The notes under the pieces were generated by a model. That model saw only the letters and a list, made by a program, of their open reading frames with translations, was not told the DNA's origin and ran no database searches. This document shows, piece by piece, positions 32,792-64,000 of a stretch of 64,000 bases of DNA. The DNA comes from a candidate division Hyd24-12 bacterium UBA5074 (GTDB lineage Bacteria > Fermentibacterota > Fermentibacteria > Fermentibacterales > Fermentibacteraceae), in contig DIAQ01000095.1 in NCBI GenBank assembly GCA_002414865.1, positions 21,430 through 85,429 of the forward strand. Reading direction: 5' to 3'. Each line of letters starts with the position of its first letter. The first letter of the stretch is position 1. The position numbers and the translations under genes were made by a program.

Positions 32792-34111
32792 CTATCCATC
32801 CTCTTTCGAGCGGGTTTGGCAAGAAGCATCGGAAGGCCGGGGCGCCCTGTCAATTCCTCGCGGTGCGGGGGTGACCGTCATATCGAGCCCTGTGAACTCG
32901 TCCACGCGGCAGGAGTAGACCTTCCCCGGCGTCACCCTCCTGCTGAATGTGCAGCGGCCGTCCACGGCCGGAGCGTCGAATCTCCCATGGCCGGTCCTGG
33001 ATGTCTCTGCGAGCACCTCCAGGGGTCCCAGGCCCAGCCTCGCGGCCCAGGCAGCCGCCGCGGCATCCCCGATCGAGCCGAGAACGGAGAGTCGATAGGC
33101 GGTTACATCCCCGGGAATCCTCGAAGCGGCCCTCGAGTGCTCGAGAGTGCCTTCCTCGTCGTAATACGGAAAGGCCACGAGGCTCCTGAGAGCCCTCGCG
33201 CCCGAGAGGAATTCACACAGGTCGTCGAAGTCGGCATCCCCCTCGCCGGGGTACCCCGCGATCACGGTGGCCCTGAGGGCGATGTCGAGGCCTGCCGAGT
33301 CCACCAGATCCAGGATCCGCTCGAGTTTCTCCCTGCCGTAGGGCCTCCCCATCCTGCGGAGCAGGTCCCCGCTGGAGTGCTGGACAGGCAGGTCGAGCCA
33401 GGGCATGACGTTGTGCCTGCGGGCGAACAGCCCGGGGAGCTCCTCCGGGAAGTGCGCGGGATGGATGTAGTAGAGCCTCCACCAGACGGATTCCCACGTT
33501 CCTGCCAGCTCGTCGGCGAGCTGCACGAGACCGGTCCCCCCGTCGCGCCACATCGAGGAATCCTGAGCCACGAGCCCTATCTCCGACGCCCCCGACTCCA
33601 CCATCTCACCGGCCCGTGCGAGGATCGTCTCCCTCCGCTCGGGGCGGAAAGGTCCCCTGATGGAAGGTATCGTGCAGTAGGCGCAGCGGTTGTCGCATCC
33701 GTCAGCGATCCTCAGGTAGCGGAGGATCCGGCCTTCCAGCGGCAGCTGGCCACAGGGCCCGCCTTGGGTGCCGAGGTAGCCTGACAACCTGGAGAACTCT
33801 CCCGGCAGGAGGAGGAGGTCGACGGATTCCAGCCCGCCGCTCCCGTCGTCCCGGAACCTTCCGGGAAGGCACCCGGCCAGGACGAGACGCCGCCCGACGC
33901 GCCGGTTCCTCCATTCCTCGGCCTGGTAGAACGCCTCTAGGGACTCCTCCACCGCGGGGGCGATGAAGGCACAGGTGTTGAGGAGCAGCAGGTCCGAGGA
34001 CTCGGGATCGTCGGAGACGGCCCAGCCCGCGCGGGAGAAGATCCCCGCGAACAGCTCCGACTCGACGGAGTTCTTGGGGCACCCGAGCGTCCTTATGCAG
34101 GCCGTGGGCAA
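32792..34111 (-). CDS. rimO: Ribosomal protein S12 methylthiotransferase RimO (MiaB-family MTTase).
   Basis: MTTase N-domain IRTLGCPKN...LLLNTCAF, radical SAM motif CDNRCAYCTIP and a C-terminal TRAM-like domain. Confidence 0.85.
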   Translation of the reverse strand: MPTACIRTLGCPKNSVESELFAGIFSRAGWAVSDDPESSDLLLLNTCAFIAPAVEESLEAFYQAEEWRNRRVGRRLVLAGCLPGRFRDDGSGGLESVDLLLLPGEFSRLSGYLGTQGGPCGQLPLEGRILRYLRIADGCDNRCAYCTIPSIRGPFRPERRETILARAGEMVESGASEIGLVAQDSSMWRDGGTGLVQLADELAGTWESVWWRLYYIHPAHFPEELPGLFARRHNVMPWLDLPVQHSSGDLLRRMGRPYGREKLERILDLVDSAGLDIALRATVIAGYPGEGDADFDDLCEFLSGARALRSLVAFPYYDEEGTLEHSRAASRIPGDVTAYRLSVLGSIGDAAAAAWAARLGLGPLEVLAETSRTGHGRFDAPAVDGRCTFSRRVTPGKVYSCRVDEFTGLDMTVTPAPRGIDRAPRPSDASCQTRSKEDG

Positions 34112-34113
34112 CT

Positions 34114-34695
34114 TCAGACGTCCCCGGGCCTGACCACGGAAAACCCCTCCGGCACGCTCAGGGCGAACCGGCCCCCGGGGACGGTCCTCCGCGTCGTCGG
34201 GGAGCCCAGGACCCAGGTGGTGCGGTTGCCGTTGGAGTCGGTCGTGCAGAGGCTGCGGGGCAGGCTGTCGGAGGAGGTGAACTCCACGGTCATCCCGGTG
34301 ATGCCATCTCCCAGATCTCCGGCGAGGACCACGGTGACAGTGTCGCCGCTCTCCGACACGGATTCCACCAGCGACGGGTCGGAGTCGAGATCGAGGAAGG
34401 CGAGCAGGCTGGAACCCTCCCCGCCCGAGAGCAGGACCTCCCGGGAGGCGGGCTCGACCGTGTACACCGTCTCGCCGTCGCAGCCTACGATGCGGCCCGC
34501 CGGGTCTTCATAGTCGAGTCTGAAGAGGTCGGGCGAAGCCAGGCTGATATGCCCGGAGCTGATCTCCTCGTCCCGTGTGAGAGCCCAGTAGTCGGTCTGC
34601 ACGAAGTCGGCCTCCAGGAAGGCGGAGGCCGACAGCCTGGCCGACAGCGGATCGAGAGGAGAGGCCGTCGCCAGGATCAGGATGGCGATATGCAT
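34114..34695 (-). CDS. LolA-like outer-membrane lipoprotein carrier protein.
   Basis: Signal peptide MHIAILILATASP. FLEADFVQTDYWALTRDEEISSGHISLASPDLFRLDYEDPAGRIV fits the LolA fold signature. Confidence 0.65.
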   Translation of the reverse strand: MHIAILILATASPLDPLSARLSASAFLEADFVQTDYWALTRDEEISSGHISLASPDLFRLDYEDPAGRIVGCDGETVYTVEPASREVLLSGGEGSSLLAFLDLDSDPSLVESVSESGDTVTVVLAGDLGDGITGMTVEFTSSDSLPRSLCTTDSNGNRTTWVLGSPTTRRTVPGGRFALSVPEGFSVVRPGDV

Positions 34696-34713
34696 GTATC
34701 GAGCCTTTCCGGA

Positions 34714-35340
34714 TCAGTTCTGACCGGGCATGGGCGCCGAGCTGCCCACCACCGCGTCGCTTCCCACGACGACCACGAGGCCGGAATGGCCAGGCAGGAT
34801 GGCTGATGTGATCTGCCCGCCGGGCTGGACCGGTATCGTCACGGGCTGCGTGAGCCAGTTCGCCAGTGTGTCGGCGAGGACGAGAGCCTCGTCCCTCAGC
34901 CCGTCAGGATAGAGAACCAGCGTCATGTCCGGGGATCCGTCGTCCTCCACCACCGTGGCGTCGTAGCCCGCGGCGGAAAGGGCCGCTGCTATCCGCGTCA
35001 TGCGGGGGGAGCTGGCCGCCAGCCCCACGACCGCAACCGAGGGCCCGGGCAGCGGAGGCGTGCCCGAGGAATCGGCGGACGGGCCTCCGAGGTCGGAGTC
35101 GATCCTCCTTATGGCCAGCCGGGCCTCGCCCACGAGAGGCGAGTCAGGAAACCCGTAGACGACGGAGTTGAATTCCTCGCGTGAACGCGAGAGGCTGCCG
35201 CGGAAATAGAGCTGGCTCGCCCTCGCGAATGTGGCCATCTCGTCGCGGCCCTGCACCAGTCCGCCTTCGTCGGTCCCCGGTCCTCCGGAGCCGCAGCTGC
35301 ACAGCAGCGCTGCAAGAGCGAGGGCCTGCAATCGCGACAT
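34714..35340 (-). CDS. Lipoprotein with a LytR_C-like C-terminal domain.
   Basis: Lipobox MSRLQALALAALLCSCGSG. C-terminal PSVAVVGLAASSPRMTRIAAALSAAGYDATVVED...TLVLYPDG...ALVLADTL. Confidence 0.6.
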   Translation of the reverse strand: MSRLQALALAALLCSCGSGGPGTDEGGLVQGRDEMATFARASQLYFRGSLSRSREEFNSVVYGFPDSPLVGEARLAIRRIDSDLGGPSADSSGTPPLPGPSVAVVGLAASSPRMTRIAAALSAAGYDATVVEDDGSPDMTLVLYPDGLRDEALVLADTLANWLTQPVTIPVQPGGQITSAILPGHSGLVVVVGSDAVVGSSAPMPGQN

Positions 35341-37613
35341 CAGCCTTCCTCCGTCCCGCGGGGCGTTTCGTCCCTCTTCCCGTAGACTTCGCGGCGCTTG
35401 CCGCCCTGGAAGGGCCCTATCACGCCCTCCTCCTGGAGCAGCTCGATCAGCCTGGCGGCCCTCGGGTAGCCCAGCCCGAGCTTCTTCTGGAGGAAGGTCA
35501 CCGAGGCCGTCTTCGAGTTGATGACGAGATCCCTCGCCGTGTCGAGCAGCTCATCCGCTTTTACATCGCCGGCCTGCGGAGTGTTCCCCGGATCCCCCTC
35601 CCGGATGGAGAACCCGTGCTCCGTCTTCAGCGCCTGATCCTTCCAGAATTCGACGATGCTCCTGGCCTCGGAGGTGGACACGTTGGAGCCGTGGATCCTT
35701 ATCGGCTCGGATGAAGTGGCCTGGAGGAACAGCATGTCACCTCTCCCGAGCAGCTTCTCCGCTCCGTTGGCATCGAGGATGGTCCTGGAGTCCGTCTTCG
35801 ACATGACGTTGAAGGCTATCCTGGAAGGGAAGTTGGCCTTTATCACGCCCGTGATGACATCGACGGAGGGCCTCTGGGTGGCGACGACGAGATGGATGCC
35901 AACGGCCCTGGCCTTCTGGGCAAGCCTGCAGATCGGCAGCTCCACCTCGTTGCCGGAGGTCTGCATCAGGTCGTACAGCTCGTCGATGAACAGGACGATG
36001 TACGGCATGGGAACCGCATCGGGCGGCGGGGCGGTGTTGAACTCGTCGATGGTCCTCGCCCTCGCCTTCTCCAGAGTCCTGTAGCGGTTGTCCATCTCTA
36101 CGACGAGGGATTCCAGGAGCTGCCTGGCCTTCTTCGGATCGACGATGACGGGGGCCCAGAGGTGGGGCACGTCCTCGTAGATTGCCAGCTCGACCCTCTT
36201 CGGATCGACCAGGGCCAGCCTCACCTGCTCGGGCTTCCTCGTCATCAGGAGAGTGCAGATCATGCTGTGGATGCTGACGCTCTTGCCCGAGCCGGTGGCC
36301 CCGGCCACGAGCAGGTGCGGAGCCTCGGTGAGGTCGGTCACGAACGGCTCGCCTTCGAGCTTCTTGCCGAGGGCCAGGGGAAGCTTCACGCCCGGTGGCA
36401 CGGCCTGGAGGATCTCACTGAGGAAGACGGGCTCGGGGTTGGAATTGGGCACCTCCACCCCCACCGCATCCCTGCCCGGGATGGGCGCCAGGATGCGTAT
36501 CCTCTTGGCCTTGAGCGCAAGGGCGAGGTCGTCCGAGAGGCCGAGGATGCTGTTCACGCGGACGCCCTGGCCCGGCTTCAGCTCGAACCGGGTCAGCACG
36601 GGGCCGGCCCTGTGTCCGGTCACCCTGCACGAGACGCCGAAGTCGGCGAGCTTCTTCTCCAGAAGGGCTGCCTTCTCGAGCAGCTCGGACTCGGGCACGC
36701 CCCTGGGAGCACCCCTCGAGGGCGCCTCGAGCATGTCGAGCTTCGGCAGGGTCGCCCTGGAGGTGAACGCCTGTACCGCAGGCAGGCCCGCAGACAGAGC
36801 GCCCTCCGGGGACCCGGGGGCACGCACAGGCTCCTCTGCGCGCTCCTTCAGGGGCTCCCTCGCCGGCGCCGCCGACCTGGCTGGAAACCTGTCCGCGGAG
36901 TCCGCCGGGGGCAGAACAGGAGCGCTCCCCGCAATCTCCGGGAGAAGGTCCCTGTCGCTGTCGGCGAGACCCTGGATGATGATGGGCGGGGTATCCTGGC
37001 GCTCAGGCCTGTCCCAGGCATGGCGCTCCATGAAAGGCGGCGGCGCAGGAGGGGCCGGGGTCTCCCCGTCCCTCCCGGGCCTGGCCCTGGGCTTCGGAGC
37101 GGCGCTCTTCGCCGCCCTTCCCAGGAGGAGCAGATCATCCGCCAGGTCCCAGCCTGTGAAGATGACGAGCGCCGTTATGAGGCATGCGAGCAGGATGAGA
37201 TAAGCCACCAGGGATCCGGCGGACTTCTCGAGGAGCTCGACCGTGCTGTGCGCGAGCAGGCCGCCCGGTCTGCCGGCGATGGCGGGGTTGAAGCGGCTGC
37301 CGACCATGTCCGTGAGGGCGGCCAGGAAGTAGCCGGTCACGCCTGTCCCGAGGATGGTCGTGAAGCCTCCCCGGAGCGCTGACGCGCTGAGGGTCCTCAC
37401 GGCGCACATCAGAAGCAGTGCCGGGAGGAGGAAGGACAGGAATCCGGCGCTTCCATAGAGGGCCTGCCTCACCTGGGCCCCCACCCTGCCCCAGGGGGGC
37501 ACGACGAGGAGGACGAGCAGGGAGATCCCTGTGAAGATGCAGGCGACCACGACTATGCTGCGCAGGCTGCTGCGTCGGCGCCTGGCCCTGGACCTGCTCC
37601 GCGCGCGTGCCAT
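35340..37613 (-). CDS. ftsK: DNA translocase FtsK/SpoIIIE.
   Basis: N-terminal TM helices, a Pro/Ala-rich linker, the motor domain [19 protein letters not shown] and a C-terminal gamma (winged-helix) domain. ATG at 37613 overlaps the HU-gene TGA stop (ATGA). Confidence 0.9.
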   Translation of the reverse strand: MARARSRSRARRRRSSLRSIVVVACIFTGISLLVLLVVPPWGRVGAQVRQALYGSAGFLSFLLPALLLMCAVRTLSASALRGGFTTILGTGVTGYFLAALTDMVGSRFNPAIAGRPGGLLAHSTVELLEKSAGSLVAYLILLACLITALVIFTGWDLADDLLLLGRAAKSAAPKPRARPGRDGETPAPPAPPPFMERHAWDRPERQDTPPIIIQGLADSDRDLLPEIAGSAPVLPPADSADRFPARSAAPAREPLKERAEEPVRAPGSPEGALSAGLPAVQAFTSRATLPKLDMLEAPSRGAPRGVPESELLEKAALLEKKLADFGVSCRVTGHRAGPVLTRFELKPGQGVRVNSILGLSDDLALALKAKRIRILAPIPGRDAVGVEVPNSNPEPVFLSEILQAVPPGVKLPLALGKKLEGEPFVTDLTEAPHLLVAGATGSGKSVSIHSMICTLLMTRKPEQVRLALVDPKRVELAIYEDVPHLWAPVIVDPKKARQLLESLVVEMDNRYRTLEKARARTIDEFNTAPPPDAVPMPYIVLFIDELYDLMQTSGNEVELPICRLAQKARAVGIHLVVATQRPSVDVITGVIKANFPSRIAFNVMSKTDSRTILDANGAEKLLGRGDMLFLQATSSEPIRIHGSNVSTSEARSIVEFWKDQALKTEHGFSIREGDPGNTPQAGDVKADELLDTARDLVINSKTASVTFLQKKLGLGYPRAARLIELLQEEGVIGPFQGGKRREVYGKRDETPRGTEEG

Positions 37614-38143
37614 CAGACGGTCCTCACGGAATCCCCGCGGCCGTCGGAGGGGGTCCGCGGATCGCAGAGGAGCGCGCCGTCCACCCAGAACCTGTAGGAC
37701 ACTATGGCTCCGGCCGGGAGGGGCACCTCGGCAACCCAGCTGCCGTCCGGGAGTCGCTGCATGGGATTGGCGGAGGAGTCCCAGCCGTTGAAGCTGCCGA
37801 CGACCGATACTGCCGACGCTCCGGGAGCGCCTGCGTAGACGAACGGCACGCGTGTCATCCGGGACAGGGCCGAGCTCACGGATTCCCTCAGCCTGTCATA
37901 TGGCCTGAAGGAGGGGCGGACCTTCGGGGGGATCTCGATGATGCCGTCGCCCCTGGGATCGCGGGCCCGCCGGGAGCCCGCAGACCGGGCCTCGAAGCAG
38001 CCGAAGCCCCGGAGGTAGACCGATCCTCCCGAGCAGAGGACCTCGGAGATCACCGCGAGGGCGCTCTCCACGACAGCCTGCGCCTCTCTCCTCGTCACTC
38101 CGGTCCTGATGGCGACCTCGCGCGCCAGCTCATCCCTGGTCAG
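37613..38143 (-). CDS. HU/IHF-family DNA-binding domain fused to a C-terminal CBM48/AMPK-beta glycogen-binding-like domain. A CTG start is proposed.
   Basis: ORF track starts at GTG 38098 (VTRREAQAVVESALAVISEVLCSGGSVYLRGFGCFEARSAGSRRARDPRGDGIIEIPPKVRPSF = HU body). In-frame upstream codons encode DLTRDELAREVAIRTG (HU helix 1) preceded by TAG, with CTG at 38143-38141 and GGAGGT 6 nt upstream. C-terminal VPFVYAGAPGASAVSVVGSFNGWD...WVAEVPLPAGAIVSYRFWVDGALLCDP matches the CBM48 pattern. Confidence 0.65.
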   Translation of the reverse strand: MTRDELAREVAIRTGVTRREAQAVVESALAVISEVLCSGGSVYLRGFGCFEARSAGSRRARDPRGDGIIEIPPKVRPSFRPYDRLRESVSSALSRMTRVPFVYAGAPGASAVSVVGSFNGWDSSANPMQRLPDGSWVAEVPLPAGAIVSYRFWVDGALLCDPRTPSDGRGDSVRTV

Positions 38144-38209
38144 GTCGGCACCTCCAGTCTATCTCCCCATGCGAACGGTCATTGACGCTATGCTGCCCGT
38201 CTCCGCCTG

Positions 38210-39706
38210 TCAACTGCCGGCGACAGCCGCGGCTATGATGCCCAGGGCGCTGTCCCCCGGGCTCGATCCGGTCGTGTCCACGCGGCCGGGCAACCCTTCG
38301 TAATGTTCGCGCCGCTCCGCCAGAAGATCCAGGAGCGCACGGCGGTCGGAGGCGAGGGGTCTGCCTGCGGAAAGCCTCTCCAGCAGAGTGTCAGTCGATG
38401 CGGTGAGGGTCACCACGACAGCCTTCGAGAGCGCCAGCCCGAGGCTGTCCCCGTCCAGGAGGGTGCCGCCGCCCAGCGCCATCACTAGAGGGCCTCCCGC
38501 TTCCAGCGCCTCCGTGAGGCACTCCTTCTCCAGGGCTCTGAAGGCCGGCTCGCCCAGCTTCTCGAAGACTGAGGGGATCGGCATCCCCGCGCGCCGCTCG
38601 ACGGCCTCGTCCAGGTCGACGAAGGGCATCCCGAGTATCCTCGCGGCTTCAGCGCCCGCCGTCGTCTTCCCGCTGAACGGGGGGCCTGCGACGAGAATGG
38701 GCTTCGAGGAGGCCCTCTCCGAGAACTCCACGAGGCCTGCCGAGCGGATGACGGATCTGGCGTGCTCGAGGCTGACGAAGAACCTCCTGCTGTACAGCTC
38801 GTAGCTCTCGCGGACCGGCGGAGGGGTCATGTTGACCGTGATCACGTTGGCCCCTGCTTCGAAGCAGCCGAGCTGGCCTCCGGGTCTGAGTCTCTCGAAT
38901 GTGCTCGTGGCCGGGATGAGGGTGTTCCCGAGGAGGAGTCTCATGGCCGCCACGAAGCGGAGTCCGAGGTCCACGCTGCCGGGTGGCAGCGCCTCGAAAG
39001 GCGTGCCCCTCGCGGGCAGGAACACCGACACGCTGGTCATCTCCGCCCCCAGCTCCTCGAGGAGGCGCAGGTCCGCGACGAGGGTGGAGGGCGTCTGGCC
39101 CGGCAGCCCCAGCAGAGGGCCGGAACCGATCTCGTAGCCGTGCTCCCTCAGAGTCTTCAGCTCGGATATCCTGTCTTCGAGGCTCAGCCCGGGCTTCACC
39201 CTCGCGAAGAGCTCCGGATCGGCGCTCTCGTGCTTGAGGATGAATTTCGACGCTCCGGCATCCCTCCAGAGGTCGAGGTCCGAGGGATCGTGCACCCCGA
39301 CGCAGAGGAGGACGGCCATGTCCATCGAGGAGATCTCCCGCACGAGATCCGCCAGCCACGCCGCCGGGTAGTCCGGCGTCTCCGCCGACTGCAGGAAGAA
39401 GGTTCTTATGCCGTTGCCGCGGGCTGTGCGGGCTGCGGCGAGAATCTGCTCCCCCGTGAGCAGGAACCTCTCGACCTGCCGATTGTCCTTCCTCATGCCG
39501 CAGTAGTGGCAGTTGCACCGGCAGTTGTTGGAGAACTCGATCACGGCCCTGAGGTAGGCCCTCCGTCCGAACGACCCGGCCCGGACGCGGCGGGCGGCCT
39601 CGAAGACGCTCACGGTTTCCTCGTCGCTGCATTCGAGGATCGCGAGCAGGTCCCCGTCCGAGAAACCAGCTCCCAGCCTTTCATCGAGCCACTTCGCGTC
39701 TATCAT
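38210..39706 (-). CDS. Fusion protein: a HydE/BioB-like radical SAM domain joined to a C-terminal shikimate kinase (AroK) domain.
   Basis: N-terminal IEFSNNCRCNCHYCGMRKDN (CxxxCxxC, HydE/BioB-like) followed by a TIM-barrel radical SAM body. C-terminal ILVAGPPFSGKTTAGAEAARILGMPFVDLDEAVERRAGMPIPSVFEKLGEPAFRALE...ALGGGTLLD is shikimate kinase. ATGA overlap with the aroE stop. Confidence 0.8.
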   Translation of the reverse strand: MIDAKWLDERLGAGFSDGDLLAILECSDEETVSVFEAARRVRAGSFGRRAYLRAVIEFSNNCRCNCHYCGMRKDNRQVERFLLTGEQILAAARTARGNGIRTFFLQSAETPDYPAAWLADLVREISSMDMAVLLCVGVHDPSDLDLWRDAGASKFILKHESADPELFARVKPGLSLEDRISELKTLREHGYEIGSGPLLGLPGQTPSTLVADLRLLEELGAEMTSVSVFLPARGTPFEALPPGSVDLGLRFVAAMRLLLGNTLIPATSTFERLRPGGQLGCFEAGANVITVNMTPPPVRESYELYSRRFFVSLEHARSVIRSAGLVEFSERASSKPILVAGPPFSGKTTAGAEAARILGMPFVDLDEAVERRAGMPIPSVFEKLGEPAFRALEKECLTEALEAGGPLVMALGGGTLLDGDSLGLALSKAVVVTLTASTDTLLERLSAGRPLASDRRALLDLLAERREHYEGLPGRVDTTGSSPGDSALGIIAAAVAGS

Positions 39707-40491
39707 CTCCGCTCCCCTGCGCCGTCCAGCGCTGTGCGAAGGGCAGAATGCGGATCGGGCGGGAAGCCCGTCCAGATCCTGAAGGAGGCGGCTGCCTGGC
39801 CGGCCAGCATCAGCTCTCCCGTGTACACTCTGCAGCCGGATCGCCCGATGGCGTTCCTCCAGCTCCAGCCCGGATTGTAGTTGAGGTCCAGGAACGACTC
39901 GACGCCGGGCAGCCCGGCGGGGACCGGAAAGACATCGTCATCCGACCAGCCGAGCGTCGTGGCGTTGACCACGAGATCGAGGGAACCGGATTCCAGCCTC
40001 TCTCCGAGCGCGGAGAGCGGCGTTTCCCCCGGCGCGGGAGTCCGTGCGAACACCTCGCAGGGAATCCCGGCCTCACAGGCCGCAAGCCTCACCGCCCGCG
40101 CCGCTCCGCCGTTGCCGACTATCGCAGCCCCCCGGGGGCGCGGCATCGATGCCAGGGCGAGAGCGGCCCCCTCCACGTCCGTGTTGGAGCCGGCCCATCC
40201 CTGACCGGTTCTCGTCAGGGTGTTGACCGCCCCGAGCGCCAGGGACCTGTCGTCGAGCGACTCGCACACAACCGCGGCCCTGCTCTTGAGGGGGGCTGTC
40301 ACGTTCAGGCCTGCATACCCGTACCTGTGCAGGACCCACAGCGCGAGCACGAGGCTGCCCGGCTCGACTGGCAGGAGCTCGTAGCTCCCGCCGGAGCCCA
40401 TCTGTTCGAGGAACGCCCTGTGCAGGGCGGGCGAGAGCGAGGAACGCAGGGGCCAGCCGACGAGTCCCAGCTTCCACGGGTCATTCCCCAT
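39703..40491 (-). CDS. aroE: Shikimate dehydrogenase.
   Basis: LGLVGWPLRSSLSPALHRAF, GLNVTAPLK, VNTL and NTDVEGA motifs. Confidence 0.85.
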   Translation of the reverse strand: MGNDPWKLGLVGWPLRSSLSPALHRAFLEQMGSGGSYELLPVEPGSLVLALWVLHRYGYAGLNVTAPLKSRAAVVCESLDDRSLALGAVNTLTRTGQGWAGSNTDVEGAALALASMPRPRGAAIVGNGGAARAVRLAACEAGIPCEVFARTPAPGETPLSALGERLESGSLDLVVNATTLGWSDDDVFPVPAGLPGVESFLDLNYNPGWSWRNAIGRSGCRVYTGELMLAGQAAASFRIWTGFPPDPHSALRTALDGAGERR

Positions 40492-41716
40492 GGCGCCGGT
40501 CCCTCGCGGCCAGGAAGGCCCTGTGCAGCCACCTGGCCGCGCCGCGGGGCTCGAGGAAGACCGGGGCGAGGAAATCGGCTCCCGCGGGAGCGCGGCCGTC
40601 GCGCACCATGTCCTCGGCGATTCCGGAATGTGCGTAGACCCTTATCGTGCCTATGCTCACGAATGTGCTCCCCCATCCCAGGAGGAGCCTCGCCCTCAGC
40701 ATGAACAGGAGCTTGCCGACAAGGGCGGCGAAGCCCTCGCCCGGGTTGCCGCTGAAGAAGTTCACTCCCACGGCCAGCCCCGCCCGCCTCGCGGCGGCCA
40801 CCGAGGGATAGAGGTCGGAAGGTCTGCCGTTCTTGCCCAGCATCCTCAAACCCCTCGCGGTTATGGCGTCGGGCGACAGGTCCACCTTCACCGCCCCTGC
40901 AGCCTTCATCGCCGCCAGGTCGGCAGCCTCCACTCCCGTATCCAGCCAGGCGCCCCACTCCATGTGCGCCTCGAGCCGTGCGACGGCCCTGACCAGGGAC
41001 CTGAAATAGTCCCTGGGAGCGTCGAAGACCGAGTCCACGAACTGGAACCTTTCTACGCCCAGCCTGGCCAGGTTCTCCACATCCGCCGCGACGGCCTCCA
41101 CGGGGCGGCAGCGGAATGACCGGCCTCCCAGGAAGGAGTAGGTGCAGTACCGGCAGGAGAACGAGCACCCTCTCCTGCTCTGGACTCCCACGCCGAAGCC
41201 CCTCGCATAAGGCGCCAGGTCGAAGAGGGAGTAGGCGGGCGGGCGGATGGCCGTGAGATCCGGTCTCGGCGGAATGGTCAGCCGGGGCGGAGTGGAACCC
41301 GATCCCAGCGTCTCCAGGATGAACGGCAGCGCCTCCTCTCCCTCGCCGGCCACGCCGTAGTCTATCCTGGGGAAGGCCTTCATCAGCGTTTCCGGATAGA
41401 TCGAGAACCCGGGGCCTCCGACGACGACCGCTCCCCTGTAGCCGGAGAGGGCGGAGAGCGCCTCCCCGAAGGGGGCGAGATACGAATGGGTCCTCGGCCA
41501 CGAACTGTCGTCGATGTTCCTGAGGGAGATCGCGGTGACCTCGGGGGCGAACGATCCGACAGCGTCGGCGAGCTCCCTCCGCGGGTCGTCGCAGATACCC
41601 AGGTCGAGCACCCTGATCTCGTGCCCCTGCAGCTGCCCTGCGAGGCAGGCGAGCCCCAGGGGGAAGATGGGTTCCTCCCGCCTCCCGGTGGGTGATTGAA
41701 CGAGCAGCAGTTTCAT
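40481..41716 (-). CDS. B12-binding-domain radical SAM protein.
   Basis: N-terminal Rossmann-like B12-binding region (MKLLLVQSP...LGLACLAG) followed by radical SAM motif GCSFSCRYCTYS. The overlapping ORF 40305..41750 in another frame is R-rich and rejected. Confidence 0.8.
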   Translation of the reverse strand: MKLLLVQSPTGRREEPIFPLGLACLAGQLQGHEIRVLDLGICDDPRRELADAVGSFAPEVTAISLRNIDDSSWPRTHSYLAPFGEALSALSGYRGAVVVGGPGFSIYPETLMKAFPRIDYGVAGEGEEALPFILETLGSGSTPPRLTIPPRPDLTAIRPPAYSLFDLAPYARGFGVGVQSRRGCSFSCRYCTYSFLGGRSFRCRPVEAVAADVENLARLGVERFQFVDSVFDAPRDYFRSLVRAVARLEAHMEWGAWLDTGVEAADLAAMKAAGAVKVDLSPDAITARGLRMLGKNGRPSDLYPSVAAARRAGLAVGVNFFSGNPGEGFAALVGKLLFMLRARLLLGWGSTFVSIGTIRVYAHSGIAEDMVRDGRAPAGADFLAPVFLEPRGAARWLHRAFLAARDRRHGE

Positions 41717-63642: not shown

Positions 63643-64000
63643 GGCGCAGGGTCGGACTGTAAGCCGGGTTCTGTATCGCCTCGCGGCGACGGCGGCCATT
63701 CGTCTGGGATCCCGGTCGCCCGGGACCTCTAGCGGCCTACCCGGAGGTGGTTGGGGGAGCGGGCAGCTCCCCGTCCGGCCGGAGCCGGACTCCCTCCCTA
63801 TTGGGCCTTGCACCGGGCGAGGTTTGCCGTGCGGATCCGGTTGCCCGGATCCCGGTGGGCTCTTGCCCCACCTTTTCACCCTTGCCCGCACTGGGCGGGC
63901 GGTTTCTTTTCTGTGGCACTTTCCTGCCGTTGCCGGCACCGGGTGTTGCCCGGCGCCCTGCCCTGCGGTGCCCGGACTTTCCTCCCGCCTGCGGCGGGCG
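63643..64000 (-). ncRNA. rnpB: RNase P RNA (bacterial type A), 5' end truncated by the window edge.
   Basis: The minus strand carries GGGAGGAAAGTCCGGGC (P4 5' strand) at 63975-63991, GGGTGAAAAGGTGGGGCAAGAGCCCACC, GGCAAACCTCGCCCGGTGCAAGGCCCAATAGGGAGGG, and 3' ACAGAACCCGGCTTACAG. The 3' end lies about 12 nt from the recJ start. Confidence 0.85.

Follow-up and report, generated by a model that had tools for sequence, protein, structure and literature searches.

A conserved HU–CBM48 fusion protein encoded directly ahead of ftsK in Fermentibacterota, with a probable CTG start in one species

Introduction

No bacterial chromatin protein is more widespread than HU, which nearly always consists of one 90-residue domain and nothing more. 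What, then, might an HU protein do with a carbohydrate-binding module at its C-terminus, and where does its translation begin when the first canonical start codon in the frame lies inside the HU domain? Both questions are raised by a minus-strand gene of the candidate division Hyd24-12 bacterium UBA5074 (Fermentibacterota; assembly GCA_002414865.1), found in a 64,000-nucleotide stretch of contig DIAQ01000095.1 (positions 21,430 to 85,429; hereafter the window; G+C content 67%). A preliminary description of this DNA had read the gene as an HU domain (residues ~1–95) fused to a C-terminal module of the CBM48 type (carbohydrate-binding module family 48), had called the fusion unusual, and had proposed initiation at a CTG codon. 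Here we describe the fusion, referred to as HU-CBM48, as a conserved single-copy protein of the phylum that is predicted to be translationally coupled to ftsK, we present comparative evidence for the CTG start, and we weigh what the protein may do.

Results

HU-CBM48 joins a classical HU domain to a CBM48 module

Read from the CTG at 38143, the frame is unbroken, with no indel and no internal stop. The Pfam profile Bac_DNA_binding (PF00216) matched residues 1–89 over profile positions 1–89 of 90 (E = 3e-19; 69.4 bits, cut-off 22.4), and this match starts exactly at the CTG codon. Further along, AMPK1_CBM (PF16561) matched residues 108–166 (32.0 bits, cut-off 26.8) and CBM_48 (PF02922) matched residues 106–153 (31.4 bits, cut-off 22.4). 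A sequence search with the C-terminal 82 residues returned as its top match the CBM48 of Vibrio GlgB (9u77; E = 5.5e-7), with which it shares VS.VG.FN.WD...PMQRL..G.W, followed by the CBMs of AMPK beta1 and beta2 (E = 7e-5).

An AlphaFold2 (AF2) monomer model (56 family members; mean predicted local distance difference test score, pLDDT, 86) contains helices at residues 3–14 and 18–37, a beta-arm at 42–81, a helix at 83–93 and, 2–3 residues later, a beta-sandwich at 96–175. The first part has the HU fold, namely two N-terminal helices, a sheet with an extended arm and a C-terminal helix, and the sandwich superposes on solved CBM48s in a fold comparison. Both halves of the earlier domain assignment were thus borne out: the protein consists of a complete classical HU/IHF-type DNA-binding domain and a near-linkerless CBM48 module, a bona fide CBM48 fold by profile and structure that is joined rigidly to the C-terminal helix of HU.

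We then compared the HU half with its known relatives. It shares the alpha1–alpha2 body, the beta-ribbon arm and alpha3 with Anabaena HU (1P71), Bacillus anthracis HU (3RHI) and Escherichia coli IHF (1IHF), is 31–38% identical to solved HUs, and carries the same R-R-A-R-D-P-x-G arm with its intercalating-type proline. Unlike these proteins it adds the 80-residue CBM48, a pair of cysteines (C37/C49) and a fixed place at the head of an ftsK operon. The NCBIfam equivalog profiles scored below their cut-offs (best IHF-alpha NF001401, 51.8 versus 111 bits; HU-alpha, 31.3 versus 162 bits); on these scores the protein is classed in the HU/IHF superfamily and not as an equivalog of HU-alpha/beta or IHF-alpha/beta.

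Mean column identity in the family was 58%. Residue conservation was counted over 56 family sequences, in which arm residues R58, R59, R61 and P63 were invariant and position 62 was Asp or Asn; the RGFGCF motif, C49 included, was likewise invariant. In sequence the domain thereby lacks none of the hallmarks of an HU that binds and bends DNA, an activity we predict for it. The CBM48 half has its own set of invariant positions: F101, G116, L131-P-D-x-S-W136 (G134 in 55/56), G145, Y150, G156, G170 and R174. As a separate observation, C49 (56/56; minus-strand codon 37999–37997) and C37 at the end of helix 2 (51/56; minus-strand codon 38035–38033) make up a conserved cysteine pair in the HU body. 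We know of no such pair in classical HU proteins, and it could be redox-sensitive or metal-binding.

The fusion is found across Fermentibacterota

A word-indexed search of 5.8 billion proteins recovered 59 relatives, nearly all of 176–178 residues at 100% query coverage, and those with names were Candidatus Fermentibacteria, Fermentibacteraceae or Aegiribacteria. Scanning one genome per GTDB species, we found 60 two-domain loci, one per genome, and every named record among them was Fermentibacter, Aegiribacteria, Sabulitectum or Hyd24-12; the remaining matches were HU-only genes (two Bacteroidales genomes). Among the 150 best matches of an exhaustive HMMER search, run with a profile of the full-length alignment against 1.84 billion representatives, the HU plus CBM48 architecture belonged to this family only (P0027, P0063 and two broken fragments), with inspection covering scores above ~92 bits, below which very divergent HU-CBM48 fusions from elsewhere may lie. 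The rest of those 150 were proteins with 4–18 tandem CBM48 repeats or with tandem HU domains. Many proteins of ~480 residues (among P0062–P0209) carry four tandem AMPK1_CBM/CBM48 repeats, with up to 18 repeats in the 1812-residue P0062, and such tandem proteins outscore single-domain CBM48s against the family profile.

By these searches HU-CBM48 is a conserved HU-type protein of the candidate phylum Fermentibacterota, with one ortholog found in each of ~60 species. The epithet "unusual" therefore needs dividing: among named loci the fusion is carried by Fermentibacterota only, but within that phylum it is the standard form, and an HU joined to an immunoglobulin (Ig)-like domain, HU-HIG, was already known. 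Full-text literature searches returned no paper that joins CBM48 with HU or the nucleoid, and the family is apparently undescribed, though already present unremarked in databases, where its members are named "HU family DNA-binding protein", "DNA-binding protein HU-beta", "nucleoid DNA-binding protein" or "hypothetical protein".

HU-HIG of Bacteroidetes (PF18291; PDB 4FMR; PMC5499826) resembles HU-CBM48 in joining HU to a C-terminal Ig-like beta-sandwich, and we found no other published HU plus beta-sandwich fusion in the literature searched. HU-HIG proteins are a lineage-specific, fast-evolving expansion without conserved operons, and their DNA cleft is blocked by the Ig domain (Burroughs et al., 2017; PMC5499826). 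HU-CBM48, in contrast, was found once per genome, is well conserved at the column identity given above, sits in an ftsK operon, has a classical arm, and has a sandwich that is specifically CBM48. PF18291 scored 24.6 bits (cut-off 26.2) against 69.4 bits for PF00216, and by profile HU-CBM48 would not be placed in the HU-HIG clade.

HU-CBM48 and ftsK are predicted to be translationally coupled

The gene directly 3′ of HU-CBM48 was ftsK in 56/58 loci, the other two ending at a contig edge. In the 55 loci examined, the ftsK start lay −4 to +2 nt from the HU-CBM48 stop, as ATGA, TAATG, TGATG or TAGnTTG; at three of these junctions an earlier in-frame ftsK start was picked first, and the same +1 TTG is present there. 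Since this spacing holds throughout, translational coupling of HU-CBM48 to ftsK is predicted at every complete locus and appears to be conserved phylum-wide. The next gene after ftsK encodes a 208-residue protein with a lipoprotein-type N-terminal Cys motif, which has no Pfam or NCBIfam match, and this order is kept across the phylum. For this species and its closest relatives at least, lolA comes after the 208-residue gene; ftsK–lolA adjacency is known from E. coli too.

Comparative evidence supports initiation at CTG

Along the minus strand the start region reads TAG (38161–38159), five codons (T G G A D), CTG (38143–38141), LTRDELAREVAIRTG, GTG (38098–38096) and, at the end of the gene, TGA (37615–37613). 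Between TAG 38161 and GTG 38098 the frame contains no ATG, GTG or TTG. The residues encoded between CTG 38143 and GTG 38098 are TRDELAREVAIRTG, and the expected N-terminal peptide of a CTG-started product is (M)TRDELAREVAIR.

To place the homologous start codon we used 62 orthologs at the DNA level: it was ATG in 49, TTG in 12, GTG in 1 and CTG in none (ATG 47, TTG 10, GTG 1 and CTG 0 in the 58 genome loci among them). Ortholog N-termini (M/L/V-T-R/K-D/E-E-L) coincide with the CTG position and retain helix 1, which a start at GTG 38098 would remove from the HU body as judged from Pfam and the AF2 model. Judged from established HU structure, loss of helix 1 would take away half of the dimerisation body. 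The earlier view that GTG 38098 lies too far downstream is therefore upheld. Residues 2–15 match at 13/14 positions in orthologs whose overall identity is only 70%, and codons 2–16 differ from those of the four closest relatives (about 70% identity; starts ATG, TTG, ATG and TTG) by 5–11 synonymous and only 1–3 non-synonymous changes. This pattern points to purifying selection on codons 2–16 and supports the CTG start.

The ribosome-binding site adds to this comparison. A G-rich Shine-Dalgarno (SD) sequence stands 4–10 nt 5′ of the start in each of the 58 genome loci. In the window, the SD that had been described as a perfect GGAGGT 6 nt before the CTG is indeed there, but is longer and closer than stated: GGAGGTG, a 7-nt perfect complement to the canonical anti-SD (assumed here; the window has no 16S gene), with a 5-nt spacer. 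Its predicted duplex, at −13.0 kcal/mol, ranks 10th of 63 loci and compares with −7.2 kcal/mol before GTG 38098. Orthologs with non-ATG starts (TTG/GTG) have stronger SDs than those with ATG (median −13.8 versus −9.8 kcal/mol; Mann-Whitney p = 1.5e-5, uncorrected for phylogeny and overstating independence because many TTG loci fall in one clade), and 8 of the 10 strongest SDs stand before non-ATG starts. The CTG of the window with its strong SD fits this apparent pattern of compensation between start codon and SD.

CTG is one base away from TTG or ATG, so a sequencing or assembly error hiding either codon was a candidate explanation. We found the segment from −90 to +12 around GTG 38098 to be identical in 6 Logan assemblies (6 SRA runs) and 5 JGI metagenome contigs, all with CTG, and two of those contigs differ from the window elsewhere, at 5–6 of 3486 positions. 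Because the codon is present in 11 independent assemblies, we reject an error, whose probability we put at practically nil unless one systematic fault affects every platform; there is no hidden ATG. The CTG allele is fixed across these 11 samples, which come from different studies and include slightly diverged strains.

Near-cognate starts (CUG, AUU, AUC and AUA) are allowed in translation table 11, and CTG is now and then annotated as a start in model genomes; in E. coli, however, CUG initiates at ~1–2% of AUG (range 0.02–3%; bioRxiv 10.1101/063800), a large drop for a nucleoid protein. The gene could accordingly be a hypomorph or an early pseudogene in this species, yielding a product from GTG 38098 or later without helix 1, or scarcely any product. 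Such decay would suit the lack of CTG in all 62 orthologs, the poor performance of CUG in E. coli, the choice of downstream GTGs by every gene caller and the AGGA 5 nt before GTG 38098. It sits poorly with a frame intact from the CTG, with a perfect 7-nt SD kept at ideal spacing and far stronger than that of the GTG, with the near-identity of residues 2–15 to those of much more divergent orthologs, with fixation of the allele in all 11 samples, and with the damage that loss of helix 1 would do to the dimerisation body. As the sampled strains all share at least 99.8% identity and the mutation could thus be recent, we leave a hypomorphic or decaying allele a small share of the probability and regard it as distinctly unlikely.

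We therefore favour the following account and hold it to be likely: the start codon of this species changed to CTG, the simplest route being a TTG-to-CTG transition, as ATG and TTG alternate among close relatives; the 176-residue protein is still made by way of the 7-nt SD, at an output probably much below that of an ATG start; and the shorter public models are mis-started. Ortholog alignment, the SD and the absence of an upstream canonical start leave CTG initiation, as originally proposed, well supported on comparative grounds.

The public models have 161 residues (P0001, P0060) or 152 residues (P0061, NCBI), from two different downstream GTGs, and none contains HU helix 1. Given the support for CTG initiation both are probably truncated, cutting off the first 15–24 residues, and the gene is in all likelihood mis-annotated (161/152 versus 176 residues) because gene callers ignore CTG. 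Elsewhere in the family, the frame of the ortholog L022 (Fermentibacteria CSMAG_2312) is closed by a stop only 4 codons in, suggestive of a frameshift or misassembly in that metagenome-assembled genome.

A conserved motif lies in the leader of HU-CBM48

Upstream of the start we observed a leader motif, [AT]GGNNAGATA, in ~54/59 loci, 17–100 nt 5′ of HU-CBM48. The 64-kb window holds 3 matches where 1.4 are expected, without enrichment elsewhere. In 28 loci, the window included, the motif forms a mini-open reading frame (mini-ORF) ATG-GNN-AGA-TAR; in others it reads AAGG or is stopless. Readthrough of the TAG in the mini-ORF of the window (ATG GGG AGA TAG) was considered as a source of an ATG start and rejected, as the motif is out of frame in close relatives and is often AAGG or stopless. 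For the same reason, what is conserved is a nucleotide motif and not an N-terminal extension; it may act as an operator or as an RNA element. At Sabulitectum-type loci it lies a constant 41 nt 3′ of a promoter-like pair, TTGAC(G)-17-TATTCA. A promoter and terminator scan of 37500–38400 found nothing in the window, where a TTGACA (38213–38208) with a 17-nt spacer and TAGCGT resembles the TTGACG-17-TATTCA of the orthologs and fails the scanner criteria; it is a possible promoter.

HU-CBM48 may tie glycogen to the nucleoid

HU proteins are dimers, so each HU-CBM48 unit would carry two CBM48 modules. The reading we prefer, tentatively and with confidence that stops short of calling it probable, is a bridge: the HU dimer would bind and bend chromosomal DNA non-specifically, the two CBM48 modules would flank the DNA-binding saddle and bind intracellular alpha-glucan, and glycogen particles would thereby be tied to the nucleoid, so that reserves would be positioned and partitioned with the chromosomes at division. 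Co-translation with FtsK would link the supply of HU-CBM48 to chromosome segregation, and the fixed ftsK coupling fits a role at that step.

An alpha-glucan ligand should be available, since the Hyd24-12 genomes have complete pathways for making and degrading glycogen and encode no other storage polymer (PMC5030696). In E. coli, glycogen that lacks a tether builds up at the old pole, moving nucleoids out of place and rendering division asymmetric (PMC11042326). The proposed logic of a storage-polymer part and a non-specific DNA part is also that of PhaF, although as a functional analogy only, with no homology. PhaF differs in having an AKP-rich histone H1-like tail and a phasin domain, and its polymer is polyhydroxyalkanoate (PHA) instead of glycogen. 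Another histone H1-like protein, AlgP, is the subject of a paper that also concerns the spacing of polyphosphate granules (PMC9239181). In Pseudomonas, PhaF bridges PHA granules to the nucleoid through its histone-like DNA-binding domain and secures granule segregation (PMC7590123).

Several observations weigh against glucan binding. We take Trp100, Lys126 and Trp133 (AMPK beta1 numbering; mapped by alignment) to form the sugar platform of the AMPK/SEX4 type. The Trp100 equivalent, W121, is Trp in 53/56 sequences; the Lys126 equivalent, position 151, is Arg in the window and variable in the family (Q19, R14, M9 and K9 of 56); and the Trp133 equivalent, position 158, is Leu in the window and in 38/56, and Trp in 7/56. 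By this alignment only one of the three platform residues appears conserved. The most strictly invariant CBM segment is instead LPDGSW, which to our knowledge is not a sugar-contact motif. Some CBM48-like modules belong to esterases and not to alpha-glucan enzymes, and the predicted template modelling score (pTM) of the AF2 model, 0.52, gives the inter-domain geometry low confidence, so the orientation of HU relative to CBM48 is not fixed by the model. The module further differs from those of GlgB and AMPK beta/SIP2/SEX4 in residing on a DNA-binding protein, not on a glucan enzyme, kinase scaffold or phosphatase; the mostly Leu and variable platform positions and the invariant LPDGSW loop also set it apart from them.

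Because only the first of the three AMPK sugar residues is conserved and LPDGSW is no known sugar motif, a protein-interaction or gating role is a serious rival, possible in our view if on the doubtful side. The module would then be an Ig-like interaction or regulatory domain that docks FtsK or other segregation and division proteins, or gates the HU saddle. The invariance of LPDGSW and R174 in place of the Trp133 and Lys126 equivalents would suit such a surface, as would phylum-wide coupling to ftsK and the very short linker that sets the domain against the HU body in the AF2 model; a precedent is 4FMR, in which the fused Ig domain fills the DNA cleft (PMC5499826). Yet the closest sequence is a genuine glucan-enzyme CBM48, that of GlgB (9u77), which shares PMQRL...G.W; 95% of sequences retain the key Trp of FN.W; the arm of HU is fully classical, in contrast to fast-evolving HU-HIG; and operon adjacency alone is no proof of physical contact.

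AMPK beta uses its CBM in a manner analogous to a further alternative, a carbon-status sensor, in which glycogen on the CBM48 would alter DNA binding or oligomerisation of HU, so that compaction and global transcription would track the glycogen reserve. Two functional-looking domains, glycogen as the sole reported reserve and a near-absent linker that would pass ligand binding on to the HU body speak for it. Its sugar-site residues are only partly conserved, there is no sign of allostery, and sequence alone does not separate it from the tether; we consider a sensor improbable.

Other features of the window

The positions of HU-CBM48 and of its surroundings are collected in Table 1. Upstream genes vary among the loci, ~35 of which have a HydE-like radical SAM gene, shikimate kinase, aroE and a B12-binding radical SAM gene there. 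The radical SAM–shikimate kinase fusion is common to the window, L001 and L056; in most other Fermentibacterota the two are separate overlapping genes (e.g. L075) or lie on opposite strands. No tRNA genes were found in the 64-kb window.

Table 1. Features of the window on and around HU-CBM48 (window coordinates).
Feature	Position	Strand	Basis or remark
HU-CBM48 coding sequence, 176 aa plus TGA, read from CTG	37613..38143	-	Translation; two Pfam domains; orthologs of 176–178 aa, 100% coverage
Putative non-canonical CTG start codon	38141..38143	-	Aligns with the start of 62/62 orthologs; same base in 11 assemblies
Shine-Dalgarno GGAGGTG, 5-nt spacer to CTG	38149..38155	-	Predicted duplex −13.0 kcal/mol
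Internal GTG (Val16), start of the 161-aa model P0001/P0060	38096..38098	-	Prodigal-type callers; HU helix 1 lost
HU/IHF DNA-binding domain, residues 1–93	37865..38143	-	Pfam, AF2 model, fold match, arm residues
CBM48 beta-sandwich, residues 96–176	37616..37858	-	2–3 residues from HU helix 3; Pfam, sequence, fold, model
Conserved leader motif ATGGGGAGATAG	38159..38170	-	Mini-ORF M-G-R-stop; its TAG closes the frame 5 codons before CTG
ftsK, 757 aa	35340..37613	-	ATG overlaps the HU-CBM48 TGA by 1 nt (TGATG)
208-aa gene and lolA region	34114-35340	-
RimO/MiaB-type methylthiotransferase	32792-34111		Next after lolA
HydE-like radical SAM–shikimate kinase (SKI) fusion, 498 aa	38210-39706	-	TIGR03956, 238 bits, just below cut-off 254.6; SKI at residues 345–484
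aroE	39703-40491		Adjoins the radical SAM–SKI fusion
B12-binding radical SAM gene	40481-41716
RNase P RNA class A (RF00010)	63644-64000	-	228 bits; 5′ end cut by the window edge

Discussion

An HU with an accessory C-terminal domain is known already; CBM48 as that domain is apparently new. Conservation across a phylum gives the fusion more biological meaning than a singleton would have. The CTG start, for its part, is a curiosity of one species; the comparative support for it is good, and its consequence for annotation is clear. Like other rare near-cognate starts it stands behind a strong SD; it differs from them as a single-species change against 62 orthologs with ATG, TTG or GTG, its use being argued from comparison. 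For CTG initiation the locus provides a clean natural test case, and it displays start-codon/SD compensation among orthologs.

A wider picture, which we regard as speculative and rather doubtful as a whole, would make HU-CBM48 the main HU-type nucleoid protein of Fermentibacterota and perhaps the sole one, coupling glycogen to the chromosome, produced in lock-step with FtsK and tuned down by its CTG in one species. A CBM on HU throughout a phylum, wired to ftsK, points to an undescribed connection of carbon storage with the organisation or segregation of the chromosome. A natural glycogen–nucleoid adaptor, if that is what HU-CBM48 is, would offer a direct handle on the way glycogen displaces nucleoids and skews division (PMC11042326), and it would represent a previously unrecognised bacterial way to position, partition or sense a carbohydrate reserve.

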